DNA from: Thermoplasmata archaeon
GTDB taxonomy: Archaea > Thermoplasmatota > Thermoplasmata > Lutacidiplasmatales > UBA184
Direction of reading: 5' to 3'
DNA: 36,127 nt
Assembly: GCA_030040865.1 (NCBI GenBank)
Contig: JASHSX010000013.1
Span: forward strand, 1 to 36,127
Below are positions 1 through 32,682 of the stretch, in pieces. Made by a program: the position numbers and the translations under genes. Below the pieces are notes generated by a model that was given only the letters and a program-made list of their open reading frames with translations, made no database searches and was not told the origin of the DNA. How positions within the stretch are numbered: the stretch's first letter is position 1; every line of letters begins with the position of its first letter.

Positions 1-3000
1 GGCCCGTCGACCGGGACGCCCTTCAGGTGGATGCGGAAGATGTCGCGCCGCGCGGCGAGGTCCGGCGGAGGCACGTAGAAGATCTTGTCGAAGCGGCCCG
101 GCCGGAGCAGCGCGGGGTCGAGGGTCATCGGCCGGTTGGTCGTCGCGATGATCATGACCTTGTCCTTCGGCCGCAGCCCGTCCATCTCCGTCAGGAACTG
201 GCTGACCGCGCGCGAGACCTCGGGCGTGCGCATCGACTCCTTGCCCGCGAGGGCATCGATCTCGTCGAAGAACACGATGGACGGGGCGTTCTCGCGCGCC
301 CGGTAGAGGACGTCGCGCACCGCGGCCTCGGACTGGCCGGCGAGCGCGCTCACGAGCTCGGGGCCGTTCACGATCTGCATCGGCACGTTGAGCTCGTTCG
401 CGGCGGCCCGCATGATGTGCGTCTTCCCGCAGCCGGGCGGGCCGAACAGGAGGATCGCGCGGCCGGTCTTGATGCGGTAGCTCTCCATGAGGTCCGGCTG
501 GGTCAGCGGGAGCTCCACGTACTCCCGGATCGCCTGCTTCGTCTCCTCGAGCCCGCCGACATCGTCCCAGCCGACCACGACCTTGCGCTCGGTCCGGACC
601 GACTGGTGCATCTTCCGCTCGTAGTCGAGCTTCATCGTCTCGTACTCCGCGATCATGCGGAGCGAGATCGACGGCTTGACGCGCGGCAGCACGGTCAGGA
701 AGTCGGCCATGGTGATCGGGGTGGTCGCGCCGCCCTCGTTGCCGCTCTCGATCTGGCGCCGGACGGCGACCGTCGCGGCCTCGCGGACGATGTTCGCGAG
801 GTCGGCGCCGCTGAACCGCTCCGTGCGCTTCGCGAGCTCCTTGAGGTCGATGTCCTTCGAGACCGGCCGGCCCGCGAGGTGCACCTGGAGGATCTCGGCG
901 CGCTCGACGATGTCGGGGGGCGGGACGTAGATGATCTTGTCGAGGCGGCCCGGCCGCATCAGCGCCGGGTCGATCAGGTCGGGCTTGTTGGTGGACCCGA
1001 CCACGATCACTCCCGACGACTTGTCGAGACCGTCCATCTCGGAGAGCAGGATCGAGAGGAGGCGCGGCGTCACGTCGTCCGCCGTGTACATGTCGCGGCG
1101 CTTGGCGATCGAGTCGATCTCGTCGAGGAAGAGGATCGTGGGCGCCCGCTCGCGGGCCGTCCTCAGCATCTCGGCGACCCGATTCTCGCTCTCCCCGTAC
1201 CACTTGCTCATCAGGTCGGAACACTTCGCGCTGATCATCTCGACGCCGAGCTCGCTCGCGAGCGCCTTCATCAGCATCGTCTTGCCGCACCCGGGGGGAC
1301 CGAACAGCAGGATCCCCTTGGGCGGGTCGAGCTTGAAGCGGGTCGTGACGTCCTTGCGCATGAGCGGGATGATCATCGACTCCTTGATGTCCGCCTTGAC
1401 ATCGTGAAGGCCGCCGACCATCTCGAACGTCACCTTGTTGCTCTGCAGGCCCTTCATCTCGGCCACGCGCGTGCCGACGGACGAGGCGCCCATGCGGCTC
1501 GTGAAGTACGACTCGAAGGCGTCCCGAATCACGAGCGAACCCGCGACGGCCGTGAACATCGCCGGGATGAACAGCAGCACGACCAGCGCCGTCCAGTTCG
1601 TGTAGCCCTGCAGCACGAAGGCGACGAGCGTGACGCCGGCCACGGTGCCGCCGCCGATCACCGACACCGAGGTCACGCGGTCGCTCGTCTGGAACGTGCG
1701 GTCCTTGAGCAGCGTCACCGCCAGCCAGCAGGCGAAGCACCAAGCGCCGATCTCGATGAGCGGGAGCGCGAGGCCCCCGAGCCCGCTGCTCCCCGCTCCG
1801 AACGAAGAGAAGTCGGGGCTGACGACGTTCGCCCACGCCGAGCCGATGCTCGTGAACGAGAAGTACGGGATCGGCAGGGTCGGGAGGAACGCCGCGGAAT
1901 GCCCGGCGATGAGGCTCGGTCGACCGGAGCCGCTGGGCCCGACCAAGTACCCCAGGACCGGGAGATTCCCCAACGTGACGAACAGCGAGATGAGGATCCC
2001 GCCGGCGACGGCGATCGCGATCCCGAGGTACAGCGAGAAGACCAAAGCGACGATGACGGGGACGACGAACGAGATCCCGATCGGCGCCAGGAAGAGCGCC
2101 AGAAAGACCCCGACGCCGAACTTGAAGTCCATCATCGCGGCGAAGAGGATCGGCAGGGCCGCGAGGAGGAAGACGAGACCCATCGCGCCCGACTGGTACC
2201 CGACCTCGGGCACGACCAGGAGCACCAGCGCGAGCAGCGAGAGCTGCGGGAACCGCCAGGCGATCAGCATCACCGCCGGGGTGATGATGAAGATCACGTA
2301 GGGCCACGGGTAGAACGGCTCGAAGAAACCCCCGAAGAGCGCGAGCGCGCCCATGACCCCGATCTCGAGAGGCTTCGGATCCTTCGTCTGAGCCCGGATC
2401 CACTTCTCGATCCGTCGCGACCAGAGGATCGCGCCGACGATGCAGAGCGCTCCCAGCGCCGTCAGGAAGTAGAAGAGGTCGTCATAGAGCGGCGCCGGAT
2501 ACGCCTGGATGTACTGGGGCCCGATCGCCACCGCGCTCGGCCCGCTCGCCCCGGTCGCGATCGCGTTGTTCGTCGCGTCGGCCTGGGCGTCGAGCGTGAG
2601 GTACGTCTGGCCGGCGTACGGCCCGCCCGGCAACTTCTGCTGGACCACCGTGAAAGTGAGCACCGCCACGTGCCCCGCCGTGATCCAGGTGGGATCGCCC
2701 TGGATGGTGGCGAAGAGGTTCGCCGCGAGCGTCGAGTACTGCGTACGTTGGGCGGGCGCGAGCGACGCGATCGACGCGAACGTGAGGCTCGTCGTACCTG
2801 TGGTCGCACTGTACTGGACCTGGCTCACCGTGTCCTTGATCACGACGGTGTCCCCGGCGGCGAGCCCGCCGGAGGTGAGGTAGACCACCGAGAGCGCGTT
2901 CGAGGTCGTCATCTTGGCGCCCGAGCTCGTCAGGAACTGCTCGGCGGTCTGGGCGTGGACCACGTCCGGATAGAACGTCCCGATGAGGGCGACCCCGGTC

Positions 3001-3335
3001 CCGGCGAGGATGATCCCCGCGAGGAAGAGCGCCCAGAACATCCGCCGTCCCGCCTCGCCCTTCTTGGGGATACGGGACGTGGGGGGACGCCGCGGGGCCG
3101 CGGCCGGTCGGGCCGGGGCCTTCGCGACCGGCTTCGCAGCCGCCGGCGTGACGGCCGCTCCCGGAGCCGCGGCCGGGGCCGTCGACGCCGCGCCGGCGGC
3201 GGTCGGCGCGCCGGACGTGGCCGACGGGACGGACCCCGAGGGCGCGGAGGTTCCGGCCGTCGACGGACCCGTCGAGGGCTGCGGCCCCGAATCGTTCGGT
3301 AGGGAGGTGCTCTGGGTCTTCGCTGCTTCGCTCAT
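1..3335 (-). CDS. Membrane-embedded tandem AAA+ ATPase (Cdc48/p97-clade modules). Ala/Pro/Ser-rich N-terminus, one TM plus a ~170-aa external domain, roughly 10 more TM segments, then two AAA domains. 3' end lies outside the window.
   Basis: Translated by hand from ATG 3335-3333 (MSEAAKTQST...), open to base 1 (1111 codons). AAA1: VTFEMVGGL, GILLFGPPGCGKT (~1278-1315), ILFLDEIDS, STNKPDLIDPALMRPGRLDK. AAA2: VGWDDVGGL, AILLFGPPGCGKT (~420-460), IVFFDEIDA, TTNRPMTLDPALLRPGRFDK. Long hydrophobic tract ~1530-2480. Confidence 0.95.
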   Translation of the reverse strand, partial: MSEAAKTQSTSLPNDSGPQPSTGPSTAGTSAPSGSVPSATSGAPTAAGAASTAPAAAPGAAVTPAAAKPVAKAPARPAAAPRRPPTSRIPKKGEAGRRMFWALFLAGIILAGTGVALIGTFYPDVVHAQTAEQFLTSSGAKMTTSNALSVVYLTSGGLAAGDTVVIKDTVSQVQYSATTGTTSLTFASIASLAPAQRTQYSTLAANLFATIQGDPTWITAGHVAVLTFTVVQQKLPGGPYAGQTYLTLDAQADATNNAIATGASGPSAVAIGPQYIQAYPAPLYDDLFYFLTALGALCIVGAILWSRRIEKWIRAQTKDPKPLEIGVMGALALFGGFFEPFYPWPYVIFIITPAVMLIAWRFPQLSLLALVLLVVPEVGYQSGAMGLVFLLAALPILFAAMMDFKFGVGVFLALFLAPIGISFVVPVIVALVFSLYLGIAIAVAGGILISLFVTLGNLPVLGYLVGPSGSGRPSLIAGHSAAFLPTLPIPYFSFTSIGSAWANVVSPDFSSFGAGSSGLGGLALPLIEIGAWCFACWLAVTLLKDRTFQTSDRVTSVSVIGGGTVAGVTLVAFVLQGYTNWTALVVLLFIPAMFTAVAGSLVIRDAFESYFTSRMGASSVGTRVAEMKGLQSNKVTFEMVGGLHDVKADIKESMIIPLMRKDVTTRFKLDPPKGILLFGPPGCGKTMLMKALASELGVEMISAKCSDLMSKWYGESENRVAEMLRTARERAPTILFLDEIDSIAKRRDMYTADDVTPRLLSILLSEMDGLDKSSGVIVVGSTNKPDLIDPALMRPGRLDKIIYVPPPDIVERAEILQVHLAGRPVSKDIDLKELAKRTERFSGADLANIVREAATVAVRRQIESGNEGGATTPITMADFLTVLPRVKPSISLRMIAEYETMKLDYERKMHQSVRTERKVVVGWDDVGGLEETKQAIREYVELPLTQPDLMESYRIKTGRAILLFGPPGCGKTHIMRAAANELNVPMQIVNGPELVSALAGQSEAAVRDVLYRARENAPSIVFFDEIDALAGKESMRTPEVSRAVSQFLTEMDGLRPKDKVMIIATTNRPMTLDPALLRPGRFDKIFYVPPPDLAARRDIFRIHLKGVPVDG

Positions 3336-3369
3336 CGTTCTTCTCGTCGATCCCGGAGAGTCCGCGCCG

Positions 3370-5190
3370 TTACCCGAGCGTCACCCTCCGTTGTTCGGCC
3401 TGGGCCTTCGCCCGTCGTTCCCGGAACCACAACACGATCGCCGGCGCCGCCACGGCGACCGCCACGAGCCCCCCGACCTCACCGGCCTGGAGGCCCGGGA
3501 CGGCCGACCAGACGTTCGAGGGAAGGGCCGACGACGCGACGTCGAACACCAGCACGGTCGGTCCGGCGCTCGACACGACGATCGCGCCGGACGGGTCGTT
3601 GCCGTAGGCCGAGATCGTCACCGAGTAGGCCCCGTAGGCGAGCGGGAACGGAGCGCTTCCCCCGCCGGGCGAGACGACCGTCGCGAACCCGAGCGGGGTC
3701 CCGACGGCGGTCTCCGACCAGCTGCCGTTCTGGATGGTGAAGTGGAGCGACGGCAGGAGCTGACCGGTCGAGAGGTCGACCGCCTCGATGAACACGAGGC
3801 CGTAGCCGGGCAGGGGCGACGTCGCCGGGCCCCCCGACTCCGAGTACGAATAGTTCCCCGAGCTGACCGCCGTTCCGAAGATGTCCTTCGCGACCACGGA
3901 GAAGGTGATCGCCCCGCCCGACGGAAGGCCCGGCAGGACCGAGTAGGAGGTGTTGGCGTCGGCCGCCGTCATGGGGAGGAGGCCCGAGAGCGTCCCGACC
4001 GCGTCGTGGTAGACGAACGCGACCGCCGCCGAGGCGATCGTCACGTTCGGGAGCGGGGAGTGGACCGTCACGTTGACGGGATCGTTCGTGGGGAGCGTCG
4101 CCGTGCCCGTGAGCACGTTCGGGCTCGCCGACAGCACGAGGTTCGCATCGAGCCCGCGCGTCGGATACCACCAGCCGCCTTGGGACGTCCAGTTGATCGC
4201 GTAGTCGCTGCTCCAGATCGGGTCGACCTCCCCGCCCGACCACAGCGACCAGGCGACGATCCGGAAGTGGAGGGTATCTCCGGCGTACGGCCCGATGGGC
4301 GCCGTCAGATTGACCACCGTCCGGTTCGACGGCGTGAAGTACTGGTTGAACGGACCGCCGGGCGTGGACCCGGTCAGGTTGAAGAACACCTCGGCGGCTC
4401 CGATCGGCGGTGGAGTGCCGCCCCCGGCTCCGATCGAGGTCAGGGTGATGTCGAGCGCCTGGTGGGCGTTCGGATCGTAGAGCGTGCCCGAGCCGATCGC
4501 CGACGGCGTGGTGCTGACGTCGATATCGTCGCCGAAGGTCGGCGTCGGCCAGGTCGACGCGACCGTGAACATCCAGGTCCAGTTGTCGACGATCCCACCG
4601 TAGTTGTACGGATTCGAGTAGGCGTTCGCGGAGCGGAGGGAGTTCGGGATCCCGACGCTCGAGTTCACCGTGACGTTGAAGTACACTTCGCTGCCGGGCC
4701 AGAAGTAGCGGAACGTGTTCAGGAAGAACGAAGCCTCGTTCGGCTGCGAGGGGGAGACGTACATGGGGAACAGGGCCGGGGTGACCGGCGAGAATCCCGA
4801 GACGGGCACCGTCTGGTTCCCCGCCGTGGGCCAGCCGGTCGCCCACAGCGCGATGTTCGCGTCCAGGATCGGTACGGTCGTCGAGAAGTTGAGCCAGATC
4901 CCCGGCGAGTCGCTCGGCAGCGTGTTCGAGCACGGCGCGATCTGGAAGGCGGAGTCGGAGAGGGCGGGATCCCCGACGACCGTGATCTGGGGCTGAAGGC
5001 TGACGAAGAAGTTCGAGGAATCCCAGGTCCCTCCGTTGGTCGGCGTGGGACACGAGGGGGCGGCTCCCGGGCTCACGGTAGCGCGCGGCCCCGCGGTCGT
5101 CGCGGACGCGCCGCCGACCGCGAGCCCCCCGAGGACCGGGATCGCGACCAGGGTCGCCACGAGCACGACCCACGCGAAACGGCCCGTCAC
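3370..5190 (-). CDS. Exported, C-terminally membrane-anchored beta-rich protein of unknown function (606 aa); paralogue of the upstream gene
   Basis: Part of track ORF 3370..5670. The GTG at 5190 overlaps the upstream TGA (GTGA) and opens a signal-peptide-like stretch (VTGRFAWVVLVATLVAIPVLGGLAVGGASA). S/T/N/P-rich body with many N-x-S/T sequons. Ends with a TM helix plus WFRERRAKAQAEQRRVTLG. Confidence 0.88.
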   Translation of the reverse strand: MTGRFAWVVLVATLVAIPVLGGLAVGGASATTAGPRATVSPGAAPSCPTPTNGGTWDSSNFFVSLQPQITVVGDPALSDSAFQIAPCSNTLPSDSPGIWLNFSTTVPILDANIALWATGWPTAGNQTVPVSGFSPVTPALFPMYVSPSQPNEASFFLNTFRYFWPGSEVYFNVTVNSSVGIPNSLRSANAYSNPYNYGGIVDNWTWMFTVASTWPTPTFGDDIDVSTTPSAIGSGTLYDPNAHQALDITLTSIGAGGGTPPPIGAAEVFFNLTGSTPGGPFNQYFTPSNRTVVNLTAPIGPYAGDTLHFRIVAWSLWSGGEVDPIWSSDYAINWTSQGGWWYPTRGLDANLVLSASPNVLTGTATLPTNDPVNVTVHSPLPNVTIASAAVAFVYHDAVGTLSGLLPMTAADANTSYSVLPGLPSGGAITFSVVAKDIFGTAVSSGNYSYSESGGPATSPLPGYGLVFIEAVDLSTGQLLPSLHFTIQNGSWSETAVGTPLGFATVVSPGGGSAPFPLAYGAYSVTISAYGNDPSGAIVVSSAGPTVLVFDVASSALPSNVWSAVPGLQAGEVGGLVAVAVAAPAIVLWFRERRAKAQAEQRRVTLG

Positions 5191-7217
5191 AGCGTCACCC
5201 GCTTCTCCTCGGCCTGCCGGCGAGACCGCACGCGCCGCCACCACGCGTACACGGGGATCGCCATCAGGCCGCCCGCGATGAGCCCGACGAGCCCCGCGAT
5301 CCCGAGCGCCCCGGTCGACGTGGTCGCCGGGGGGGCGGCCACGAGACCCGGTGGCGTGGCGTTGAGATAGAAGAGGAACGCGTTCCCTTCCTGGACCACC
5401 CAGTAGTCGCCGCCCACCTCGAGCGGTCCCCGGTTCGTGGGCACGTGCGGGATCGAGACGATGAGGCTGACGTTGCCGCCGGAGAGTCCCCCCGCGGGGA
5501 CCCAGAACGGATCGAGCACGGAGATCCGATACGTGGAGTTCGCCGGAACGATCGCGGGCGTCAGGACCTCGCCGCTCACGTTCGGGTAGGCGACGCCGTA
5601 GCTCGTCGGCGTCTCGATGTTGACCCCGTCCGAGAGGCCCGTGATCTGGACGTGGGCGCCCGAGACCCACGACTGCGTTCCGTTGTCGAAGACGTACACG
5701 TAGAAGAACGTCGCATTCCCGGGGAGGACCGGGACCAGCTCAGAAAACGTCGGGACCGAGAACGAATAGACGGACGAGACGTCCTCGTGCTGGACGAAAT
5801 CCCACGCTTCGACCGAGAAGGAGACCTGCGAACCGATCGGGAACGGCGGGATGACGCCGTTGAACACGGTCGATCGCTCGCGGACGAGGGGGAGGATCGT
5901 CGTCGCGGTCTCTCCGAGCGCCGGGTAGGAGAAGGCGATCGACAGCTGCGCGGCGAGGATCGAGGTCCCGGGGGCGATGCTCGTGAGCGTTACGGGGACG
6001 GCGACGCCCGGTGCGACCGTGGCGTTGGAGGAGGTGAGCACGGAGCCCGGCGCGACGGCCAGCGCGAGATCGTCCTGGAACACTCCGGTGCTGAAGCTCC
6101 CGTTCCCGCCGACGGTGTACGACTGCGGGGCGGTCGCGATGCGATCGTCGTAGGTGTCGTAGACGACGAACTGGTAGTCGACGGTCGCTCCCTGGATCTG
6201 CGCCCAGCTCGCCGGGAGGGTGATCGAGGTGACCGATTCGCCCGGAGCCCCGAGCGTCGAGCTCACCACCGACGAGCCGGGGAAGGTGAGGGTCTGCGCC
6301 TGGAGGACCGAGCCGTTCGGGGTGTACTCCTCCACGATCCAGTACGCGCGACCGATCGTGGCGTTGACGGGAGGCCCGTCGGCCGCGGTCGTGTTGAGCG
6401 TCGCGGTCACTGAGTCGTTCCAGTTCGGCGCCTGCGGGACGATGGAGACCCCGACGTCCTGGCTCGCCGCGCCGGACCCCGCGTACTGGCTCGAGCCCGG
6501 GTACGGCGAGTACGCCCAGGCCCCGGCGTAGGTGAACTGGAACGTGGGGCTCGTCCAATGGGTGAGGACCGATCCGTTGTACGTGTCGAACGCGATCCAC
6601 CAGGTCACGTGCATCCCCGCGTAGAAGTTGGGGGCCGAGCCGATCGCTTCCTGGGCCGTGAACTCGAGGTTGTACCAGTAGGGGTACGAGGCGTTCGCCA
6701 CCGGGTTCGCGGCGGGCCACCACCAGTGGCCGGACTTCGTCGTGTTGTCGGCGTGCCATACGTTGCCGGAGTAGACGCTGTAGTACGGGTTGCCGTTCCA
6801 GGAGACGGCGGTCACGTTGAGCTGCATGACCGAGTTGGGACCCGCCCACGGGCCCATCGTGCTGTAGTCGAGCTTCGTGTGCGACTTCACGTACAGATTG
6901 ATGTTGATCGTGGGGTTCGGCTGCGACGTGGCCACGTAGCTACCGGTCGGAGGGAGGATGTTCGGCTGGGAGGCGTTCGCCATCGAGACGCAGATCCCCG
7001 AGGCGATCGCGTAGCACGGCGGATTGTATCCGGACGACGGCGCGATCGCCGCACCCGGGTCGCTGTCCGACGCCGGGCGGGACGCGGCGCCGACCGGAGA
7101 GGAGGGGCCGGCGCCGAGGACGTACGCCGTGGCGATCAGCGTCGCGACCGCCGCAAGCACGGCGAGCCGTCCGGCGAGAGCCGAGCGACGTCCGCTGCGA
7201 TGCCGGATGCTACCCAC
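5187..7217 (-). CDS. Exported, C-terminally membrane-anchored beta-rich protein of unknown function (676 aa)
   Basis: Part of track ORF 5187..7676. GTG at 7217 has GGAGG ~10 nt upstream, then a basic plus hydrophobic leader (RRSALAGRLAVLAAVATLIATAYVLGA). Ends with a TM helix plus WWRRVRSRRQAEEKRVTL. Confidence 0.88.
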   Translation of the reverse strand: MGSIRHRSGRRSALAGRLAVLAAVATLIATAYVLGAGPSSPVGAASRPASDSDPGAAIAPSSGYNPPCYAIASGICVSMANASQPNILPPTGSYVATSQPNPTININLYVKSHTKLDYSTMGPWAGPNSVMQLNVTAVSWNGNPYYSVYSGNVWHADNTTKSGHWWWPAANPVANASYPYWYNLEFTAQEAIGSAPNFYAGMHVTWWIAFDTYNGSVLTHWTSPTFQFTYAGAWAYSPYPGSSQYAGSGAASQDVGVSIVPQAPNWNDSVTATLNTTAADGPPVNATIGRAYWIVEEYTPNGSVLQAQTLTFPGSSVVSSTLGAPGESVTSITLPASWAQIQGATVDYQFVVYDTYDDRIATAPQSYTVGGNGSFSTGVFQDDLALAVAPGSVLTSSNATVAPGVAVPVTLTSIAPGTSILAAQLSIAFSYPALGETATTILPLVRERSTVFNGVIPPFPIGSQVSFSVEAWDFVQHEDVSSVYSFSVPTFSELVPVLPGNATFFYVYVFDNGTQSWVSGAHVQITGLSDGVNIETPTSYGVAYPNVSGEVLTPAIVPANSTYRISVLDPFWVPAGGLSGGNVSLIVSIPHVPTNRGPLEVGGDYWVVQEGNAFLFYLNATPPGLVAAPPATTSTGALGIAGLVGLIAGGLMAIPVYAWWRRVRSRRQAEEKRVTL

Positions 7218-7297
7218 GGGCCTGTTCCCTCCGTCTAGCGGACCCTCGCCCCGGTGCGACCCGAGTTCCGACCGAACGTCACTTCGTCGACCTCCGA

Positions 7298-9451
7298 TCA
7301 CTCGAACCGCCCGAGCGACGGCCCCTCGACGGCCGCCTTCTCGAACTTCGATTGCATGGGACCCGCCTTCATGGCCATCTGGAGCGCGATCGGCCGATTG
7401 CGCATCATGACGCGGACGAACCCGGCCCCGAGGAAGCCGGCCGCCGTCGCCTGGAGCGAGACGTTGGCCGCGCCGACGTTCTGACCGATCCCGATCTGCT
7501 GGATCACGGGGACCGGGGCAGGCGCCGCGATCGGCAGGGCGGGTACGCCTCCCGGTGGGGGCGGCGCTCCCCCGCCCCCGGCCACGCCGGTCGGCAGACC
7601 TTGGACGTCCACGGACGCGAGCGGGAACGACTGGGTCACGACCGTGGTGTTCGTGTACGGAAGATAGTTCGCCCACGTGTAGAGGCCGTCGACCGCCGCG
7701 CTCCCGCCGACCGTGCAGAAGACAGTCGTGCAGGCGTCGACCGGGACCGTGCCGAGCGGCGGGCCGGTCGACTCGACGTTGAACGAGGCCGTCCAGGTAT
7801 CCCCGAGCTCGATCGAGTTATTGTTCGGGAACTTCGACCAGTTCCACGCGAGATAGACGAGGCTGCCCTGCTGGTGGAGCTCGCCCGGCGCGCACGCCAG
7901 GAACAGCTCGCCGTTGCGGTCGCAGGTCGTCACCAGGTCCAGGCTCGCGCCGGGCGCGAGGGCGATGTTCCCGAACGGCACGAACGTGAAGATCGGCAGA
8001 CCGGCCACCCCCTGCGCCAGGACCGTGTTCACCACGGGGCCGAATCCGATGTGGTCGATCGCATTGAGTAACCACGGATTGTTCAGATTCGGATTGTCGA
8101 GCGGTCCGTGGGGCACGAACTGGAGATTCCCCTGTTGACCGTCGGGGCACGCGAACCACGCCGGTCCGTCCCAGGAGCCTCCCGTGGCGGCGGCCATCTC
8201 GCAGCCGGCGAGCAGCACACGCTCCACGTTCTCCTGGATGATCAGCTGCGCCGTCGAGCCACCGCCGTCCGGCTCGTGGTTGGGCCACCAGCCGGGAGAC
8301 GTGGGGTCCGTCGGCGTGGTCCACAGATCGATCACGTCGATCGTGCACGTTCCCCCGATGGCGTTCGTGCACATCGGCGAGGTCCGAGCGAGCGCGGCGA
8401 TCGAGTCGTTCGGGTTGCCGTCCTGGCTCGTGATCCAGCCCTCGCAGTTCGGGCTCACCTCGCCGGAACCGAACGCGTACGACGGCTCGCAGGTCGGCGA
8501 CTGGCAGGCGGGGCTGAACAGGCTCGCCTCGGTCTGAGAGCCGCAGTAGGAGTAGCTGGCCCCGTAGTTCTCCGAGAAGCCGGGCGCCCTCGGCGCCGAG
8601 GAGGTCATGAGCACGATCACGTGGTGGGTGTTCGGGGACCAGTCGAGCCCGAACCCCTGGATCGTTCCGTACAGCTCGGTGATCATGTCGCTGTGGAGGA
8701 AGTTGTCGGCCATCCCCGAGTCGCAGTACGTCCAGCCGTTGTCGCAGGCGAAGAGGTTCGCCTTCACCTGGAGCGCGACCTGGCCGAAGTCCTGCACCGG
8801 CACGAAATCGGGAGTATCCACGTGGAAGGCCGGATCGTCCCCGTCGTCGATGTAGTCGTGGGTCGCGAACCCGTCGATGAGCGCGAACGAGACCGTGGTG
8901 TGGGGGTTCTCCGCCTGGATAGCGTTGGCGACCCGTTGAGCGTTGTACATCAGGAACTGCGGCCCGTTCGCCTCCTCGCACATCCCGTCGCTCGAGCTGC
9001 TCGTGTCGCAGATGTCGGGCCCGCACCCGCTGTAGCATCCTGCCCCGTCGTAGTTCGTCGTCTCCAGGATGAACGCGACCTGGACGGCCGGCCACGAGTC
9101 GGCGACCGGCGTCGGCGTGGCGGAGACCGTGACCCGGCTCTCCCCGGTGCCGGCGGCGCAGCTGGCGACGCCGTAGACGCAGATGCTTCCCGGGGCGGCC
9201 GAGATGCCGAGGTCCAGGTCGCCCGAACTGTTGACGGCGGGTGTGACCGACGGGCTCGAGGCCGGTGAGACCCCCGCCGATCCGGACGACGAACCCGCGT
9301 TCACGACGAGAGCGTTCGACTCTCCCATCGCCCCGACGCACAGCAGGGCGAAGATCCACCCGATCCCCAGGGCGAGGGCGATGCGACGCCCCCGGCTCCC
9401 CGGCGGTCGGATCCATCGGTCTCTCGGGCCCGGGCGCTGTGCCGACCTCAT
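7298..9451 (-). CDS. Exported Cys-rich protein with a degenerate von Willebrand factor A-like domain, Pro-rich linker and atypical C-terminal tail (717 aa)
   Basis: Part of track ORF 7298..11683. ATG 9451 overlaps the upstream TGA (ATGA). Leader RRIALALGIGWIFALLCVGAM. vWA-like strands VQVAFILETT, TVSFALID and WSPNTHHVIVLMTSSAP. About 20 Cys after the leader. The CDS is secure; the vWA call is by resemblance only. Confidence 0.8.
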   Translation of the reverse strand: MRSAQRPGPRDRWIRPPGSRGRRIALALGIGWIFALLCVGAMGESNALVVNAGSSSGSAGVSPASSPSVTPAVNSSGDLDLGISAAPGSICVYGVASCAAGTGESRVTVSATPTPVADSWPAVQVAFILETTNYDGAGCYSGCGPDICDTSSSSDGMCEEANGPQFLMYNAQRVANAIQAENPHTTVSFALIDGFATHDYIDDGDDPAFHVDTPDFVPVQDFGQVALQVKANLFACDNGWTYCDSGMADNFLHSDMITELYGTIQGFGLDWSPNTHHVIVLMTSSAPRAPGFSENYGASYSYCGSQTEASLFSPACQSPTCEPSYAFGSGEVSPNCEGWITSQDGNPNDSIAALARTSPMCTNAIGGTCTIDVIDLWTTPTDPTSPGWWPNHEPDGGGSTAQLIIQENVERVLLAGCEMAAATGGSWDGPAWFACPDGQQGNLQFVPHGPLDNPNLNNPWLLNAIDHIGFGPVVNTVLAQGVAGLPIFTFVPFGNIALAPGASLDLVTTCDRNGELFLACAPGELHQQGSLVYLAWNWSKFPNNNSIELGDTWTASFNVESTGPPLGTVPVDACTTVFCTVGGSAAVDGLYTWANYLPYTNTTVVTQSFPLASVDVQGLPTGVAGGGGAPPPPGGVPALPIAAPAPVPVIQQIGIGQNVGAANVSLQATAAGFLGAGFVRVMMRNRPIALQMAMKAGPMQSKFEKAAVEGPSLGRFE

Positions 9452-12400
9452 CTTTCTTCTCCCCCTTCGTCCGTCGCCGGGCGGGCCTCGCGGGCCGGAC
9501 GGGTCCGGCGACCGCGCAGGCGCAGCCCAAGGATCGTCGCTCCGACACCCCCGATCGCGGCCGCGGTCACGATCAGGAGCTCCCATCCGCCCAGGGAGAT
9601 AGCGCTCCCCGACGACGGGCTCGTGCCCGGCATCCCTCCGAGCGCGAGGACGACCGAGCCCGTGGACCCGGTGGCGTCCACGCCCTGGCGGAGCGTGACG
9701 TAGCCGAGCGCCGACGCATCGAACGTGTACTGTCCCTCGGGAAGCACGATCCGGAACGTCCCGTTGGCGCTCGAGACGAACGACAGCTGGACGGAGTGGC
9801 CGTCGACGGCGACTCCCTGCACGGTGACCTGGGCCCCGACGATCGGGAGCCCGCTGGTCTGGTCCGCGACGAGCCCGTAGATCGCGGTCTGCGGAGGGAG
9901 AAGGTCGATCGGCAGCGATTGCGCCGCCCCGTCGATCTGGATCGGGAAGGTGACCGGGGCGTACGGAACGGTCGAGCTGGGCGCGGGGACGGCGCGGATC
10001 GACCAGCTCCCGTTCGGCAGTTCGGTCGAGAAGGAACCGTCCGCTGCGCTGGTGGCGAGCGGAACCCAGGTGCCGTTCGCTGCCACGAGTCCGATCGATA
10101 CGTTCGCGAGCCCGGCGCCCGTGTAGCCGTCGGCGACGATACCGCTCACGTCGTAGGTCTGGACCGACAGCAGCAGGTCCCCGAGCGAGGTCGGGGACGA
10201 GACCTCCATCGGTTCCGCGAGCACGGCGAATCCCGGAAGGAAGATCGACAGCACGTACTCCCCCACCGAAGCGGAGAGCTGGAACGAGCCGCTCGCCCCG
10301 GTCTCGGTCGAGAAGGCCGGCGTGCCGTTCACCAGGAGCGCGACGACGGCGCCCCCGAGCGGCGACCCGCCGACGCCGAACGGACCGGAGGCGGTCTCGA
10401 CCCGACCGGAGACCGTGTACGCCACATCCTGGCCGAGCGGCACGAGATCGATCGGGGCGGGCAACGTGACAACGGCTCCCGACAGGACGCCCACGGTCCC
10501 GAAGTCCGTGGCGTACCCAGGAGCGGAGACGATCAGCTGGGAGGCTCCCGCCGGGCCCTGCACCGCGAAAGCACCGGAGGCGTCCGAGAGGCTCTGGGGC
10601 GCGCAGGACGCGCCCGTGGCCGTTCCGCAGAGGAGCACCTGGGCCCCGACCACCGGGTCGCGAGTGGCAGAGTTGACGACCGAACCCTCCACGGTACCGA
10701 ACTCGTTGAGGAAAATAGTCCCGAGATCGAGGCTCTCGCCGGGGGTCAGCACGATTCCGAGCGAGGCGGGCGAGAAGCCCGCGGCGCTGACGTCCATGGT
10801 GTACGTGCCCGGAGGTTCGACGTCGACGATGCGTCCCGCCGAGTCGCTCAACGAGGGCGCGAAGCACGCCCCGGCCGCTGCACAGACCTGGACCTGGGCA
10901 CCGACGATCGGGTAGCCCGCGGGCAACCCGAGCACGAGACCGGAGAACGAGGCGAAGGCGTCCAGGTGGATCGCTCCGGCCAGGTGTTGCCAGCAGTCCG
11001 AACAGAGCTTGAGCTCGGTACCGTTCGAGTCGAAATCGGTCGCGGAGACGTTCACGAACACCGTTCCCGGCGCGGCCGCGACCCAGAAGTCCCCGCTGAT
11101 GTTCGACTCGGCCGACGGACAGATCGTCTCCCCCGGCGAGCACGCGACCACGAGCGCCCCCGAGATCGGCGCGTTCGAGGGGTAACCGATGACCTGCCCG
11201 GCGATCACGCCGTCCCCGGTCAGGTTGACACTGGTCACGTTGGTGAACGCCCCGGGATGCACGTTCAGCGCCAGCACCACGCTCTCGTAGGCGGGGTGGC
11301 TCACTGTGAGGAGATCGTCCTCGCCGGCGGGGGCGTTCTCGAGGAATTGTCCCTCTTCGTTGGTCGGCTGAGGATTCAGGCTCGCCGAGGTGCCGCCCGA
11401 GTTGGTGACGTCGATCTCCGCATTCGGGAGCGGCTGGTGGTTCGCCGCATCCTTCACGCTCGCGAGCACCGGGGTCGAGGAGGAGTTGACCTGGGAGCTC
11501 GCGGTGTAGCCGAACGACTGCAGGACGATCGCGCCGAGGTGGATCCCCGACCCCCCGGCGGCGAACGTGGTCCGGCTCGGGGAGACGTTCAGGTAGAAGG
11601 TGGTGGAATTGAACGGCCCCTCGGAGTCCGCGCTCACCAGCAGCTCGACGTGGTCTCCCGGGGGAGCGGTCGTATTGACCCACCCGTTCTGGTTCCCGAT
11701 GCCCGACGACGCCTCGTAGCTCCCGGAGGTCGCCAGCACCGAGGAGAACACGCCCGGCGTCGGGACCGGCGCTCCGTTCGAGGAGACGACCCGGAACTCA
11801 ACGTATCCGTAGTGCTCGAGATACATGGTCGGCATGGCGATCGACTGACCGGGCTCCCCGGCCGAGCTGTTGTCGTAGTAGGCGGCGCCGCTCACGTAGG
11901 CGTTCGGCGTCGTCGCGAGCACCTGGATGAGGTGACTCCCGTCGTGGTCGGGGTCGCCCGTATAGGGCGACGCGAACAGCACGTAGTACCCCTGAGCGCT
12001 GGCCGGACCGCTCGCCGTGCCGCCCCGGGTGCCCGGTCCGCCGACCTGGATGCTCACGGGAGCGTAGCGGACGCCCTGCCCGTTGCCCATCGTCTGGTCC
12101 ATGACGTAGCCGCTGTACGACGAGAAGTCGCCCATCTGGAACGTGGCGATCGACTGTCCCGAGACGTTGACGCCCACGATCGTATAGCCGAAGACGAACC
12201 CACCGCCTCCCGTGTACGGTCCCCCCCCGAGCCCGATCGCGCTCACGTTCATCGGTCCGAGGCTCGGCGACTGGACACGATAGTACCCGGTCCCGTTGAG
12301 GTAGGTCGACTCGACGGGCTGTTGGGAGCAGACGAAGACGCCGGAGGCCGTGCATACGGTGACCTGCGCCGGCGGAGCGAGGTCGAAGTGCCCCACGGGG

Positions 12401-15330
12401 GTTGCGATGTCGAACCACGGGGTGGAGGTGACGTTGCCGGAGATCCACGGCAGCGGTTCCAAGGGCAGGACTCCCACGTCTACCGCCAACGCGACGGAGG
12501 CGTTGATGAACTCCGAGAACGGTTCGTAGCCGGGCACGGAGAGGTTCAGGTAGAAGAGGCCGGACGGGATTGACTGGTTGAAGAATCCTCCGGTGTTCGC
12601 CCCCGAGGAGAAACCGACCCCGCCGATCGCGCCGGGGCTCGTGAGCACGAACTCCGTCGCCTGCACCGCCACCCCCCACCCGGTGGAGGCGTCGACGACC
12701 CGCCCGGTGAGCCAAGCGCCCCCCGCGTTCGAAGCGGACGACGGCGCCGAAGCCGCACTCGCCGAAGCGTCCGAGGCGGTCGAATTCGCGTTCGCCCCGA
12801 CCGGCTGGAGGACGATCGGCGGAAGGACCGTCGTCTCGTTGGACGTCACGTTCGCCCAGGTCCAGTCGGTCGAGTAGCCGGACGCGGTGACCTCGATCTT
12901 GTACGTGGATCCGGGCAGCCAGCCTCCCGGGAGGAGTCCCAGGTACTGGCCCCCGGTCGAGACCCGGCCCGATCCGAGGATCGTCTCACACACCAGCTGG
13001 GCGGTGATCGGACACACGCTCGCGTGGGCGTCGAGGATCGGCTGTCCCTCCGGGTCGAGGACGAGACCGGTCAGCGTGCCGAGGGGCGTGAGAAAGATCG
13101 GTCCCACCGACGTCGTCCCCTCGCTCGAAACGTTCGCCCAGACCGTGTTGGGCGCATACCCCGATGCCGAGACGGTGATGTACCCCCACCCGGGGGGCCC
13201 CGGGACATCGAAGGTACCGTTGATCAGCGTCACGTTCGAGAAACAATTGAGCCCGTCCAGGGGGCAGATCTCCAGGGACGCGAACGGGACCGGCTCGGTG
13301 CCGCCCGCCTCCTCCACCAGTCCTGAGACCATCACCGAGCCGGTGAGATTGATCGATTGGACGTGTTCGTTGTTGGCGGTCGAGAGCGCCAGCGGGAACT
13401 GCTTCGTGTCGCAGCATAACGACTCGGTGCTGGCCCAGGTGGTGTTCGAAGCGGACTCGGCGCCGGACGCCTCGATCTGGACGGGTCCGGGGGGAGCCGG
13501 CACGCAGAACGCCGTCGCCGTGTCCACGTACGGGGAACAGTCGAACGCGCTCAGTTGGTCGACGTACGAATAGGAGACTCCCGGGGACACGGTGTAGCTC
13601 GTCGACGTGGCGGTGACGACGAACCCTCCGGGGGGCGCCTCGTTGGTACCTTGAAGGTAGACGTTGCCCGCGATGTACGTGCCGACGGGCATGGACGCGT
13701 TCACGTACGTCGTCTCGTACGGCGTCACATTGGCCCACGCCGTCGTCGGATAGACCGGGAGGTCCCCCGGTATCGGCCAGGTGGGATACGGCGGATCACA
13801 GAACGGTGTGTAGTCGGGCGTGATCAGGATGTAGTTCTGGAGCGGCAACGCGGCGAGCTCACCCGGCTCTCCGACCTGCTGGCACCCGCCCGAGATGCAG
13901 TTGGAGATGCTCGTGTTGATGACGACCTCGGTGTTCTGGATGACACCGGCCACGATCGTGCCGACCTTGTAGCCGTCCGCGCTGCAGACGCTTGCGCGCC
14001 AAAGTCCGGTGTGGAAGTCGTTCTCGAGCGACGTGACGTTCGCCTGGTCTTGCGGGTTCGAAGCGTCGTAGTCGAGACTGACGGTGAGCTGGACGGTACC
14101 CGGGGGAGTGAGGTAGAAGGCACCGAGGTTCACGACCTGGCCCGGATTCTCCTTGGCGACGAAACCGATCGACTGGGTGAGCTGGACGTATCCCTCCGCC
14201 TGGAGGATGATGTAGTCGTTGCCGGGAGGGCCGAAGGCGCTCAGTTCGCCGGTCTGGCTGGCGGCGCCCTGTTCGGCGCATTGGCCGCTGATCGAGCTGC
14301 ACACTTGGAGCGAGGCCCAGCTGCCCGAGATCAACTGCCGCGTGGCGGCGTCGTAGATGGAGGCCCGGAACGAGTCGTACGCCTCAAGGTAGATCGTGCC
14401 CAGATCCACCGAGGCCCCGGGCGTCGCATTCACCCAGGTGAAATTACCCTGAAAGGCGTAGAACGGCGACTGGAACTGGACCGTCGAGGGGACCGGCGGC
14501 ACCGCCGCGGTGAAGCTCCCGTTCTCCGTCGTCGTCCCGATCGGGGTGCCGACCTGCGTGTCGTTCAACGACGCCGAGGAGACGACCACCCCGGGGACCG
14601 GCTGAGGTATCGGAGTGTCGGTCATCACATAGCCGGTGATCGTCGCCTCGTGGACCAGGTAGGTCGTCCCGGAATAGGTCGTCGAATCGTTGGCGACCGT
14701 GGCGTACGACGTGTTGGACAGGTAGTAGTTCGCGGTGAAGACCAGGTAGTCGGTCCCCACCGGCGCGACCACGTTGAAATACCCGGTCGCGGAGGAGCTT
14801 CCGGCCACGCAGATCTGCGGGGAGCAGAGTTCCCCGCTGAGCGAGTACGCCTGCACGGCAATGCCGGAGAGTCCGAGGCGCTGCCCGATCGAGTTCGCGA
14901 CCGACGTGTTGACGAAGCCGCTGAGGCGCCCCGTGAGCTCGCTCTCGTCCTTCGTGAGGCGCGCGCTTGCCGCGGCCCGGGTCGCGTTCTCTTGGGCGGC
15001 TTCGGCCCGGAGCGCGCTCGTGACGGTCAGGTTGTGGAACTCCTCGGCCTGGGCGAGTTGCGGCGAGTTGCTGTAGACGCCCGTGGGATGCGCGCCGGGG
15101 AGCGCCGAGGAGGAGACCGGGGCACTCGGGACGGACGGGGCGGGCGCGAGCGGCGACACCGAACCGGCGCTGCCGGTCGAGGTCACGAACTCCCCGGACG
15201 GCACCGCGCTCAGCAGCATCGCCGCAGCGATCCCTACGATCGCGGCCACTTCGAACGCCATCGACCGCTCCCACCGAACCGAGGCGACCGTCCCACCCGA
15301 GGAAGAATTGTGGGAACGGAAGGCCCCCAT
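9448..15330 (-). CDS. Giant surface protein (1960 aa) of tandem carboxypeptidase-regulatory-like / prealbumin-fold repeats with a C-terminal TM anchor
   Basis: Track ORF 9448..15336; ATG at 15330 preferred over TTG. N-terminal hydrophobic segment. Recurrent ~85-95 aa unit GxxxGxV...PxxGAxV...G.F...V[S/T]AxGY...LGxIxL. Ends LLIVTAAAIGGVGATILGLRLRGRR. Confidence 0.92.
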   Translation of the reverse strand: MGAFRSHNSSSGGTVASVRWERSMAFEVAAIVGIAAAMLLSAVPSGEFVTSTGSAGSVSPLAPAPSVPSAPVSSSALPGAHPTGVYSNSPQLAQAEEFHNLTVTSALRAEAAQENATRAAASARLTKDESELTGRLSGFVNTSVANSIGQRLGLSGIAVQAYSLSGELCSPQICVAGSSSATGYFNVVAPVGTDYLVFTANYYLSNTSYATVANDSTTYSGTTYLVHEATITGYVMTDTPIPQPVPGVVVSSASLNDTQVGTPIGTTTENGSFTAAVPPVPSTVQFQSPFYAFQGNFTWVNATPGASVDLGTIYLEAYDSFRASIYDAATRQLISGSWASLQVCSSISGQCAEQGAASQTGELSAFGPPGNDYIILQAEGYVQLTQSIGFVAKENPGQVVNLGAFYLTPPGTVQLTVSLDYDASNPQDQANVTSLENDFHTGLWRASVCSADGYKVGTIVAGVIQNTEVVINTSISNCISGGCQQVGEPGELAALPLQNYILITPDYTPFCDPPYPTWPIPGDLPVYPTTAWANVTPYETTYVNASMPVGTYIAGNVYLQGTNEAPPGGFVVTATSTSYTVSPGVSYSYVDQLSAFDCSPYVDTATAFCVPAPPGPVQIEASGAESASNTTWASTESLCCDTKQFPLALSTANNEHVQSINLTGSVMVSGLVEEAGGTEPVPFASLEICPLDGLNCFSNVTLINGTFDVPGPPGWGYITVSASGYAPNTVWANVSSEGTTSVGPIFLTPLGTLTGLVLDPEGQPILDAHASVCPITAQLVCETILGSGRVSTGGQYLGLLPGGWLPGSTYKIEVTASGYSTDWTWANVTSNETTVLPPIVLQPVGANANSTASDASASAASAPSSASNAGGAWLTGRVVDASTGWGVAVQATEFVLTSPGAIGGVGFSSGANTGGFFNQSIPSGLFYLNLSVPGYEPFSEFINASVALAVDVGVLPLEPLPWISGNVTSTPWFDIATPVGHFDLAPPAQVTVCTASGVFVCSQQPVESTYLNGTGYYRVQSPSLGPMNVSAIGLGGGPYTGGGGFVFGYTIVGVNVSGQSIATFQMGDFSSYSGYVMDQTMGNGQGVRYAPVSIQVGGPGTRGGTASGPASAQGYYVLFASPYTGDPDHDGSHLIQVLATTPNAYVSGAAYYDNSSAGEPGQSIAMPTMYLEHYGYVEFRVVSSNGAPVPTPGVFSSVLATSGSYEASSGIGNQNGWVNTTAPPGDHVELLVSADSEGPFNSTTFYLNVSPSRTTFAAGGSGIHLGAIVLQSFGYTASSQVNSSSTPVLASVKDAANHQPLPNAEIDVTNSGGTSASLNPQPTNEEGQFLENAPAGEDDLLTVSHPAYESVVLALNVHPGAFTNVTSVNLTGDGVIAGQVIGYPSNAPISGALVVACSPGETICPSAESNISGDFWVAAAPGTVFVNVSATDFDSNGTELKLCSDCWQHLAGAIHLDAFASFSGLVLGLPAGYPIVGAQVQVCAAAGACFAPSLSDSAGRIVDVEPPGTYTMDVSAAGFSPASLGIVLTPGESLDLGTIFLNEFGTVEGSVVNSATRDPVVGAQVLLCGTATGASCAPQSLSDASGAFAVQGPAGASQLIVSAPGYATDFGTVGVLSGAVVTLPAPIDLVPLGQDVAYTVSGRVETASGPFGVGGSPLGGAVVALLVNGTPAFSTETGASGSFQLSASVGEYVLSIFLPGFAVLAEPMEVSSPTSLGDLLLSVQTYDVSGIVADGYTGAGLANVSIGLVAANGTWVPLATSAADGSFSTELPNGSWSIRAVPAPSSTVPYAPVTFPIQIDGAAQSLPIDLLPPQTAIYGLVADQTSGLPIVGAQVTVQGVAVDGHSVQLSFVSSANGTFRIVLPEGQYTFDASALGYVTLRQGVDATGSTGSVVLALGGMPGTSPSSGSAISLGGWELLIVTAAAIGGVGATILGLRLRGRRTRPAREARPATDEGGEER

Positions 15331-15426
15331 GGTCAACAGCGGGCGCTTCGACCACTCGGGTCCCCGCGTGGCGGGTGGACACCCCGATGAGGCCAGACGG
15401 GCATCCTCGGTTCCACACTGCGATGG

Positions 15427-18900: not shown

Positions 18901-18936
18901 TCGGTCGCCACGCGAGCGTCGGGCTGATGGTACCAT
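15910..18936 (-). CDS. YVTN/YncE-type beta-propeller surface protein: 14 blades, three Thermoplasmata-type Ig-like repeats, C-terminal TM
   Basis: 14 counted repeats of Pxx[L/I]AYD...E[I/V]FV[A/T]NxxSxxVSVI. Three VxFxESGLxxGxxWSVT units. Signal-like N-terminus, and a TM helix plus basic Pro-rich tail. Confidence 0.93.
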   Translation of the reverse strand: MVPSARRSRGDRRGSSRSRTCGSVPTLVAALVLAIVFLVSGSVSSLVGALPVSPLRSGGSVPTIDAAPESSHPGPVTGRAAATPLGGPVGLEAPYVANTLVLSNGTDIPGNFSSPNGITPYFAAYDPDTGVVVVGDQYSNALSEISDTTDAVVAQIPTGQHPLGLAFDPVQNEWFVGADWSNEIQVIRAASGQVVAALPTPDQSGCPALLYDSGQGEVFVADDDAGEVTIISATTNAILANIPLGAGSTPFALAYDPQLGEVFVTDWGTNLVSVINDTDFQVVQTIPVGDQPYGIGYDPTLQEIFVANSGSSSVWAIDAQTYAVVAKIAVGSAPTGLAYDSGESEIFVTNIGSDNVTVVSATTDKSVASVVAGNDAFGIVYVSGRSQVWIVSRATGFVSVISDTTDRVVANISLWAKPAGIAFDAGTHQLFVSDEAAGVVDVVSDASNAIVARVAVGSLPVGVVYDAGQHEIFVANSGSDTVSVINDASDTVTANIAVDDSPLALGYDPQLGEVFVGGNSSASVAVINDTRNVVVGGGIAAEEFPVGLAVDTSDQEVLTADDTTNQISVLDAATGSPGPYVDVGLSPDAVAVMPGLQEAFVANNGSNTVSVLSTVDDTVLSTAKVGAGPAAATAVPNKDEVVVADYLSGSITALNASSGGTFATLSVGAGPNAAAYDPDTGALYVANSVNGTVSILQFRSNETYDVDFNESGLPGGTSWSVTVNDSRSASTGSSVAFSELNGSYDYTIGTVSGYRPSPAAAGFSVTGSRVSILVDFVRVTATEYPVVFQESGLQPGVAWSVTLNGTSNQSTSSSVLWDLPNGTYLYVVAPISGYGCDPSSGSLTVQGGAIAENISFKLIEYYVTFVESGLPPGANWSVTLAGVSHDSSTSSVLFVEPEGDFSYAVQGPSGFVGLPVSGTVTVSDQSLSEAVSFTTSSSGSGTSQPWLGPSALLAYAGFGVLVAVIVIALVLRNRSRSAPRGPPPRRSPASGDPTGPKTAPPSQDTEPP

Positions 18937-30415: not shown

Positions 30416-30453
30416 GGGCCCCACTTGTCAAACCGACCATGTAAGGACTCCCG

Positions 30454-31235: not shown

Positions 31236-31253
31236 CGCCCGTCCTGCGGCTCC

Positions 31254-31715
31254 CTAGGCCAGGTGCTGACGGAAGTCGTCGACGACCCGCTCGCAGTAGG
31301 CACAGGCGAGAACGACCGGCCGTCGGCTCTCGACCGCGAACTCGCTCTCGACCGGCTCGGGCTGGTGCGTGATGCAGTTCGGATTGGGGCACTTGAGCAC
31401 GCCGACGATACGGTCGGGGAGGTCGACGTTCCTCTTCGACTGGACCTTGAAGTCGCGGATGATCGAGATCGTGGCGGTCGGCGCGATGAGCGCGATCGCG
31501 TTCACCTTGCGCGGCGAGAGCTCCATGTTCTCGACCTTCACGATGTCCTTCCAGCCGTGCTTCGCCGAGCGGACGTGCATGGCGATGCTGACGGTCGAGT
31601 CCTTGTCGAGCGACTGCACGTTGATGATGCGCAGTACCTCGAGCGCGAGACCGTTGTTGATGTGATCGATCACGGTCCCGTTCTTGATCGGGACGATCTT
31701 GAGCTCGCGGACCAT
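31254..31715 (-). CDS. pyrI: Aspartate carbamoyltransferase regulatory chain
   Basis: IKNGTVIDHI, KDIVKVE, ALIAPTATISII, Zn ligands CPNPNCIT and CAYCE. GGTGA RBS. Confidence 0.98.
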   Translation of the reverse strand: MVRELKIVPIKNGTVIDHINNGLALEVLRIINVQSLDKDSTVSIAMHVRSAKHGWKDIVKVENMELSPRKVNAIALIAPTATISIIRDFKVQSKRNVDLPDRIVGVLKCPNPNCITHQPEPVESEFAVESRRPVVLACAYCERVVDDFRQHLA

Positions 31716-31719
31716 CGAC

Positions 31720-32658: not shown

Positions 32659-32682
32659 CCGGGGCGCGACGGAGGCTCCCCC

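Follow-up and report, generated by a model that had tools for sequence, protein, structure and literature searches.

We found that a gene at one end of a 36,127-nucleotide stretch of DNA from a Thermoplasmata archaeon (the window, which is bases 1-36127 of contig JASHSX010000013.1, here C194) encodes an ATPase in which a large membrane domain is joined to two AAA modules in a single chain, and that this gene is coupled to genes for anchored surface proteins with immunoglobulin-like (Ig-like) domains. We propose that in Thermoplasmatota the ATPase drives a dedicated envelope machine, whose task would be to extract or remodel anchored surface proteins, a reading to which we give a probability of about 45%. 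The predicted combination is a threading ring fused to a large conserved membrane domain and genetically tied to outside subunits across the phylum. If surface proteins are indeed extracted or remodelled in this way, the machine would show how archaea turn over an anchored glycoprotein coat.

A membrane domain and two AAA modules in one chain

The ATPase gene lies at positions 3..3335 of the window on the reverse strand, and all ATPase coordinates below are on that strand. Its open reading frame specifies 1111 residues from an ATG at 3335 and is open at the 3' end, where the start of contig C194 truncates the C-terminus. The source is a genome bin of 1.75 Mb that is 80% complete. We took this frame to be the real one among many overlapping open frames because the guanine plus cytosine (GC) content at its third codon positions is 0.95; the surrounding DNA is 68-70% GC. 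From its N-terminus the protein is laid out as a low-complexity tail, a transmembrane helix (TM1), a 165-residue outside domain, TM2, a ten-helix membrane core, a 30-residue linker and two AAA modules, D1 and D2. A Pfam scan of the window protein found two PF00004 AAA stretches and AAA_lid_3.

The fusion of the membrane part with the AAA modules is genuine. The first-pass annotation, made from the sequence of the window alone, had described an external domain, membrane segments and two AAA modules in one chain, and the relatives bear this out. With residues 95-620 as query we found 95 proteins, on contigs of up to 1.25 Mb, and 84 of them were 1093-1354 residues long. The precomputed Pfam lists of all 95 contain AAA families, except those of two short proteins (P0015 and P0070). 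Matches that carried an organism name were all from Thermoplasmata, Thermoplasmatota or 'Ca. Lutacidiplasmatales'. The 11 shorter matches were flagged as partial by their source, lay on short contigs or were frameshifted. Two of the short forms, P0070 (705 residues) and P0083 (711 residues), were considered as stand-alone membrane domains and rejected; their ends are out-of-frame D1, so these short forms do not represent separate membrane and AAA genes. All 13 loci that we fetched, from several taxonomic families, have the order variable N-terminus, core, D1, D2, and short forms of ~890-905 residues begin directly with the core. In the f17 subfamily (L024:9373-10131, reverse strand) the N-terminal extension is a cytoplasmic acidic region with a double zinc ribbon (Zn_ribbon_3, DZR) and no outside domain.

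The ATPase is patchily distributed in its class. Of 301 class genomes that were sampled, 61 had the core (a tally that counts one unpublished genome, G212, used for no other result), representing 21 of 88 genera; in a sample of 251 genomes from across the phylum, 35 had it. Contig-end fragments aside, the matches in both samples lay in frames of 855-1439 residues without interruption. When 1.84 billion representative proteins were searched with a profile of the core, 51 matched at E <= 0.001, of which 30 were at E <= 1e-30.

Another copy of the gene is present in the same genome (contig C126:19174-21489, L002). It has 771 residues, is open at its 5' end and is 74.6% identical in protein to the window copy over their overlap, window 3-2000. 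Both copies are broken at contig ends, and they could be two paralogues or come from two co-assembled strains. A protein of 1216 residues from another assembly, P0003, is identical to the window protein as far as residue 808, and from residue 779 on it is identical to the C126 copy; by its sequence it is a chimera or recombinant with its crossover inside D1 (residues 779-808). Could separate membrane and AAA genes have been joined by misassembly or a frame error? The broken copies and the chimera are what might suggest it. We regard this as extremely improbable: the frame is uninterrupted in 84 of 95 relatives and, with no internal stops, at every independent locus that we fetched, and the crossover in P0003 is not at the joint between membrane and AAA parts.

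The C-terminus can be judged from the second copy and from relatives. The C126 copy terminates ...FIHTYGTRG, ~105 residues past the cut in the window, with no extra domain. The last ~105 residues of the window gene itself were not retrieved, P0003 being chimeric. In full-length relatives D2 is followed by a lid and a final helix and by nothing further; Vps4_C (PF09336) is listed for some relatives and was matched in P0186. As first noted for the window, no protease domain is visible. We found no peptidase in the window, in the C126 copy, in one full-length form that was scanned or in the Pfam lists precomputed for the 95 relatives, and none among the 25 Pfam families listed for the window protein. 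The C-termini of relatives and paralogue (...YGTRG, ...YGTRA, ...YKVRK, ...HNVRL) have Arg as the penultimate residue. As defined in a 2012 survey, the HbYX motif is a hydrophobic or small residue, then Tyr or Phe, then any residue, at the extreme C-terminus (PMC3493965). Docking to the proteasome through HbYX was rejected, since the C-termini of relatives and paralogue do not fit.

The ten-helix core and the two rings

The window protein was at first thought to have about 11 transmembrane segments. Its polytopic character stands; the count does not. We count 12 membrane helices from hydropathy, an AlphaFold2 (AF2) model and counts of charges and sequons over 37 relatives. The model covers residues 95-625, was built on 76 sequences and has a predicted local distance difference test score (pLDDT) of 82.3 and a predicted template modelling score of 0.78.

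The N-terminal tail (residues 1-98; 3042..3335) is of low complexity, rich in Ala, Pro, Ser and Thr, and ends in a basic cluster; it is predicted to be cytoplasmic (mean of 6.7 Lys+Arg in residues 70-98 over the 37 relatives). TM1 (residues 99-121; 2973..3041) is defined by hydropathy and corresponds to helix 3-31 of the model. It leads into an alpha/beta domain (residues 122-285; 2481..2972) that is modelled with pLDDT mostly >85 and is placed outside by its sequons. We found matches to this domain only in genomes of the window's own taxonomic family (f1). Foldseek returned only weak OB-fold-like rows for it (E > 0.2), and Pfam returned none. TM2 (residues 286-306; 2418..2480), supported by hydropathy, the model and charge counts, is followed by a basic cytoplasmic stretch, RRIEKWIRAQTKDPK. 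The ten-helix core (residues 307-603; 1527..2417) was delimited by alignments and a profile search. By hydropathy and the model its helices form a block at 324-603, with one disordered loop of ~60 residues at 457-519. We infer that the hydrophobic run at 407-467 (61 residues) contains three helices, a count deduced from the need for the chain to end in the cytoplasm.

Charges and sequons agree with this arrangement over the 37 relatives. Loops assigned to the cytoplasm carry 6.7, 4.6, 1.0, 1.0, 2.6 and 4.0 Lys+Arg per sequence, and the short outside loops 0-0.3. Almost all N-x-S/T sequons lie in two places: the outside domain has 1.43 per sequence, and 0.76 per sequence are in the large outside loop. 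In the predicted topology the AAA rings are cytoplasmic and the conserved motifs of the core face outward: PFYPW (340-344), YQ (380-381) and GN (456-457). The ~60-residue loop (457-519) is likewise outside. A nearly invariant Asp in the core, D403, has a cytoplasmic position. Across subfamilies only P, F, Y, Q, G, N and R form invariant columns in the core. We considered a sortase- or protease-like enzyme in the core because the partner proteins (below) carry a C-terminal helix and basic tail. This candidate was rejected, as none of the columns that stay invariant from one subfamily to another is Cys, His, Ser, Asp or Glu.

TM12 is joined to D1 by a conserved linker (residues 604-632; 1440..1526) with the pattern F..YFTS.LG...VGTRVAEMKG. 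F607, F611, T612, S613, G616, V620, G621, R623, M627, K628 and G629 are invariant in the alignment of 37 sequences, and the linker is also conserved across subfamilies.

Whatever its function, the ten-helix domain constitutes a new family of proteins. Searches of Pfam and NCBIfam with residues 95-620 gave no families even at E <= 10. Foldseek, the search that the first-pass annotation had suggested for the membrane region, gave no match in the PDB at E <= 0.001 for residues 95-625. None of the solved folds compared with the core was convincing, the lead in VIA-align being the S component of ECF transporters, which has a six-helix fold, and the ESM Atlas gave no usable match to residues 300-625. 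Weak profile matches of the core came from three other contexts (P0169, 557 residues; P0179, 617 residues; P0185, 928 residues). One weak match, in a 'Ca. Nezhaarchaeales' protein (E 3e-15, with the identity of the helices unchecked), has the core fused to a KaiC/RAD55-type ATPase. A second has the core and a single AAA module, and a third, in a 'Ca. Micrarchaeota' protein, the core and two AAA modules. These matches hint that the core may serve ring ATPases in general as a membrane adaptor.

D1 (residues 633-907; 615..1439) has PF00004 at 675-805 and AAA_lid_3 at 828-864. D2 (residues 918-1111; 3..584), recognized by its match to the CDC48 model, is truncated by the contig start, so that its lid and C-terminal helix are missing from the window. 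The motifs that had been read in both modules are all present in the translation. Each has the Walker A sequence GPPGCGKT; the Walker B sequences are LFLDEID and VFFDEID, and the Arg fingers are in ALMRPGRLD and ALLRPGRFD. DKIIYVPPPD and DKIFYVPPPD occur once each, one per module; VKPSISLRMIAEYE follows D1, whose last helix is KPSISLRMIAEYE. The suggestion that the modules are typical of Cdc48 D2 also held. Taken alone, D1 aligned best to positions 448-726 of the 733 in the CDC48 model (282 bits) and D2 to positions 450-640 (220 bits), that is, both to the D2 half.

The two modules differ in pore loop 1. In D1 the loop is MSKWYGESE (residues 709-717; 1185..1211, first placed at ~1185-1210), and in D2 it is NGPELVSALAGQSE (residues 988-1001; 333..374, first placed at ~327-370), which is non-aromatic. 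MSKWYGESE, with its K711-W712-Y713-G714, is invariant in 37 of 37 relatives, and the corresponding A995, L996, A997 and G998 of D2 are invariant in the close family. The gripping loop is thus on the membrane-proximal ring and not on the distal one, as had been noticed at first. In 14 of 14 divergent members D1 has kept Walker A, S-K/R-W-Y-G-E-S-E, the second region of homology and the Tyr of pore loop 2. In the window lineage D2 is complete save for its non-aromatic loop. It has decayed in distant subfamilies: 5 of 14 members have lost its Walker B and 3 of 14 its first Arg finger, and pore loop 1 is unconserved.

This arrangement had been described as pore loops reversed relative to p97. In p97, D1 has a non-aromatic loop and D2 the aromatic loop that grips the substrate. 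As a statement about sequence the description is correct. As a reading, an NSF-like division of labour fits better, given the loss from D2 of Walker B and Arg fingers in the distant subfamilies. In NSF/Sec18, D1 is the active motor and D2 a non-hydrolysing hexamerisation ring. On the sequences at hand, D1 of the ATPase is best read as the motor ring and D2 as the scaffold ring.

We compared the modules with those of Cdc48 and PAN in a quick maximum-likelihood tree (LG+G4) of 48 modules from 6 genomes and the family loci: 14 family D1, 14 family D2, 7 Cdc48 D1, 7 Cdc48 D2 and 6 PAN modules. Each group formed one clan except Cdc48 D2, which had one member apart (one origin not excluded). In the best tree family D1 and D2 fell together, apart from Cdc48 D1, Cdc48 D2 and PAN, on a branch with a Shimodaira-Hasegawa-like approximate likelihood ratio test support of 97.6. 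Approximately unbiased tests gave p = 0.046 for family D1 with Cdc48 D1, 0.093 for D2 with Cdc48 D2 and 0.106 for D1 with Cdc48 D2, so the alternatives were not firmly rejected. An origin of the two modules by internal duplication is favoured by the tree and is not established.

Anchored partners and the proposed envelope machine

The ATPase gene is the third gene of a tightly packed operon. The two genes before it, also on the reverse strand, encode partner B (5187..7217; 676 residues) and partner A (3370..5190; 606 residues; P0098), which are paralogues (23% identity in alignment). The stop codon of partner B overlaps the GTG start of partner A as GTGA (window 5187-5192), and the stop of partner A is 34 nt before the ATPase start. 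A GTGA overlap such as that of B and A is a typical sign of translational coupling. Partner A has a signal-like N-terminus, tandem beta-sandwich domains, a C-terminal transmembrane helix and a conserved basic tail ending ...WFRERRAKAQAEQRRVTLG; the tail of partner B ends ...RRQAEEKRVTL. Both proteins have many sequons and near-identical basic tails ending RRVTL(G), with the consensus WFRERRRKAEAEQRRITL over 43 sequences. In the AF2 model of partner A (pLDDT 81.8) several beta-sandwich domains follow one another and are joined by the anchor helix, and Foldseek matched the model to tandem Ig-like adhesin repeats and to the MG domains of complement C3, with E down to 2e-11. Its 42 relatives are all 'hypothetical' Thermoplasmata proteins without Pfam domains.

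At all informative loci the ATPase is genetically coupled to anchored Ig-like surface proteins, next to it or fused to it. We examined 15 loci including the window; L033 is cut on that side, leaving 14 that are informative. At 11 of the 14 a homologous anchored Ig-like protein is encoded directly upstream of the ATPase. At the other three (L022, L023 and L034) the ATPase carries a homologous ectodomain and its anchor at its own N-terminus, as a fusion (BLAST E 8e-27 to 2e-13). The ATPase had been pictured as a single-chain device. That picture did not hold up: the operon with two anchored Ig-like proteins, fused to the ATPase in some lineages, indicates a multi-subunit envelope machine. The fusions at three loci argue that partners A and B are subunits and not degraded substrates. 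A complex prediction of the core plus D1 with the anchor and tail of partner A scored 0.00, which counts neither for nor against contact, and a look-up of RNA runs for window 1-7300 listed none, which likewise has no bearing.

A small membrane protein with two helices is probably a fourth component. It is encoded 3' of the ATPase in L028, L029, L030, L032, L033 and C126, ~100-215 nt past the ATPase stop (~100 in most). It has 112-124 residues in four f1 relatives, 84 as called in L029 and 121 in the C126 copy, and its C-terminal motif is S-F-E-[IV]-[YF]-x-P (SAELYSP in the C126 copy). In other subfamilies a small protein of 116-117 residues is encoded 3' of the ATPase. The position of the counterpart in the window would be beyond the contig start.

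Our proposal for the motor of a dedicated envelope machine is as follows. The ATPase would form a hexamer with the D1 ring just beneath the membrane. D1 would thread polypeptide by means of its double-aromatic K-W-Y-G pore loop 1 and the Tyr of pore loop 2, and D2 would be mainly a scaffold or regulatory ring. The Ig-like proteins would be stable subunits that face outside, with their anchors packed against the core. The motor would grip cytoplasmic segments of anchored surface proteins and pull, such that the glycoprotein coat is extracted or remodelled. It would be a dislocase, with a logic like that of Msp1/ATAD1 or of Cdc48 in endoplasmic reticulum-associated degradation (ERAD), and without a protease of its own. 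If true, this would be a compact, single-operon model for an AAA motor that passes polypeptide across or out of a bilayer.

Several points weigh against this proposal. No mechanism is suggested by the core, which lacks conserved residues of a polar or catalytic kind that would point to one. Walker B of D1 is D-E in 11 of 14 divergent members and D-D in the other 3. The hexamer, the position of the ring and any channel are deduced from what is general for the AAA family. There is no protease domain and no canonical HbYX tail, and the C-terminus, ...F..SYGTRG, resembles an ordinary last helix of a classical AAA protein. In addition, the fusions speak against A and B as the substrates of the machine.

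It is also possible that the partners are stable subunits of a machine that threads nothing. The ATPase could be a mechanotransducer like MacB, FtsEX or LolCDE, in which motion of the ring, passed on through the core, switches the adhesive or enzymatic state of Ig-like or vWA subunits. The partner fusions at 3 of 14 loci, the outward-facing conserved motifs of the core, the short conserved linker to D1 and the anchored vWA proteins co-encoded in other subfamilies are all consistent with this. We nonetheless think that it is improbable.

A general quality-control unfoldase for membrane proteins, standing in for FtsH, would draw damaged proteins from the bilayer and hand them to a separate protease, the 20S proteasome or membrane LonB, and its Ig-like partners would regulate it as HflK/C do. 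It would have the same motor features as the envelope machine. Partners A and B, as a pair of single-pass paralogues whose outside domains are large, do recall HflK/HflC, and the genome has Cdc48 and PAN, making a proteasome system plausible. However, there is no HbYX tail, the conserved neighbours include no gene for a protease, and the ATPase gene always lies in an island of surface-protein genes. The ATPase was also not found in 240 of the 301 class genomes, including many that are 99% complete, which is odd for a housekeeping function. We consider this alternative unlikely, if somewhat less so than the mechanotransducer.

The Cdc48 of the source genome is on contig C101 (996.8 bits). Its PAN gene is on contig C22 (L036:1474-2685, reverse strand; TIGR01242, 576.7 bits against a cut-off of 500). 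The 2012 survey cited above, of 81 archaeal genomes, reported PAN absent from all Thermoplasmata (PMC3493965). The presence of PAN in these uncultured lineages differs from what that survey reports.

The island around the operon contains three large surface proteins, all encoded on the reverse strand and all with a signal-like N-terminus and a C-terminal helix with basic tail. They are a protein of 1962 residues with seven CarboxypepD_reg stretches (9448-15336), one of 1008 residues with NHL and beta-propeller matches (15910-18936) and one of 1070 residues with a thermopsin protease domain and a CarboxypepD_reg/PEGA domain (27212-30424). Very large proteins such as these, together with a gripping ring that adjoins the membrane domain, might suggest an export or assembly motor that pushes polypeptide outward from D2 through D1 and a membrane channel. 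That would be a very doubtful reading. All five of the proteins concerned (A, B and the three large ones) have a signal-like N-terminus and a membrane anchor, so that Sec would suffice; D2, the putative entry ring, is degenerate in many members; and no channel-like fold was recognised.

Neighbourhoods of relatives contain PKD and vWA surface proteins. In the operons of other subfamilies there are anchored vWA proteins with a proline-rich stalk (L022:10151-11581 and L024:13683-15554). A vWA protein together with a short-tailed Ig-like type-I protein is loosely reminiscent of integrin-like pairs. Beyond the island in the window are housekeeping genes (30612-32919), for a GDT1-family cation transporter and then pyrI and pyrB, the regulatory and catalytic chains of aspartate carbamoyltransferase.

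Comparison with known systems

The Cdc48/VAT/p97 group (TIGR01243; PDB 5vc7, 5g4g, 6oaa) is similar to the ATPase in having two tandem classical AAA modules, each with Walker A, Walker B and Arg fingers. VAT (5vc7, 5g4g) is its best solved relative (E 3.5e-128), CDC48 is its top NCBIfam model, and its lid and last helix are like those of Cdc48 D2. In contrast, the ATPase scored 493.2 bits against a cut-off of 802.65 for TIGR01243, and it has a polytopic membrane domain in place of the N domain (double-psi barrel plus beta-clam). Both of its modules are D2-like, and its D2 loop is non-aromatic, whereas the Cdc48 of the same organism has aromatic loops in both rings: Cdc48 of the source genome and five relatives has K-[YF]-Y-G in 7 of 7 D1 modules and K-W-V-G in 7 of 7 D2 modules.

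The likeness to NSF/Sec18 is one of design, with a conserved N-proximal ring that has an aromatic loop and a distal ring that is degenerate in many members. NSF differs in being soluble, in having an N domain and in disassembling SNARE complexes via adaptors.

FtsH (TIGR01241) also has an outside domain between TM1 and TM2, followed by a classical AAA module. HflK/C, its paralogous single-pass partners, may be compared with partners A and B. The ATPase differs from FtsH in its score (410.2 bits against a cut-off of 600), in lacking an M41 peptidase, and in having a second AAA module and ten more helices. FtsH is not known from archaea. The membrane-anchored AAA unfoldases known to date (FtsH, Msp1, Bcs1, LonB) have one or two helices and separate channels or none.

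Msp1/ATAD1, an extractor of tail-anchored proteins, resembles the ATPase in being a membrane-anchored ring that faces the bilayer, with a W-then-Y pore loop 1 and no protease domain. The paper on the structure of Msp1 links the double aromatic of its pore loop 1, W187/Y188, to grip on membrane-protein substrates (PMC7018516). Msp1 differs in having one N-terminal helix and one meiotic-clade AAA module; the ATPase has 12 helices, two modules and outside partners.

The MBA proteins are, like the ATPase, archaeal AAA proteins bound to the membrane. The 2012 survey names this 'membrane-bound AAA' group with reference to its own reference 40, and in its cluster analysis the group is separate from Cdc48, PAN, AMA and Vps4 (PMC3493965). 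MBA is generally described as a crenarchaeal single-AAA protein with few helices.

We found no characterised family with this architecture in Pfam, NCBIfam or the literature, where a full-text search, supplements aside, gave no published description of it. A bolder form of our proposal, which we hold more tentatively than the envelope machine itself, is that this would be a self-contained dislocation machine, invented independently in Thermoplasmatota, that extracts or recycles the glycoprotein coat. Ig-like receptor subunits, a ten-helix conduit and a threading AAA ring would work together, with channel and motor covalently joined, in a prokaryotic machine whose logic parallels that of ERAD or Msp1. 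By the comparisons above the ATPase is not a Cdc48, an FtsH, an HbYX ATPase or an Msp1. We regard it as an AAA unfoldase anchored in the membrane, distinguished by its new membrane domain and by partners of its own.

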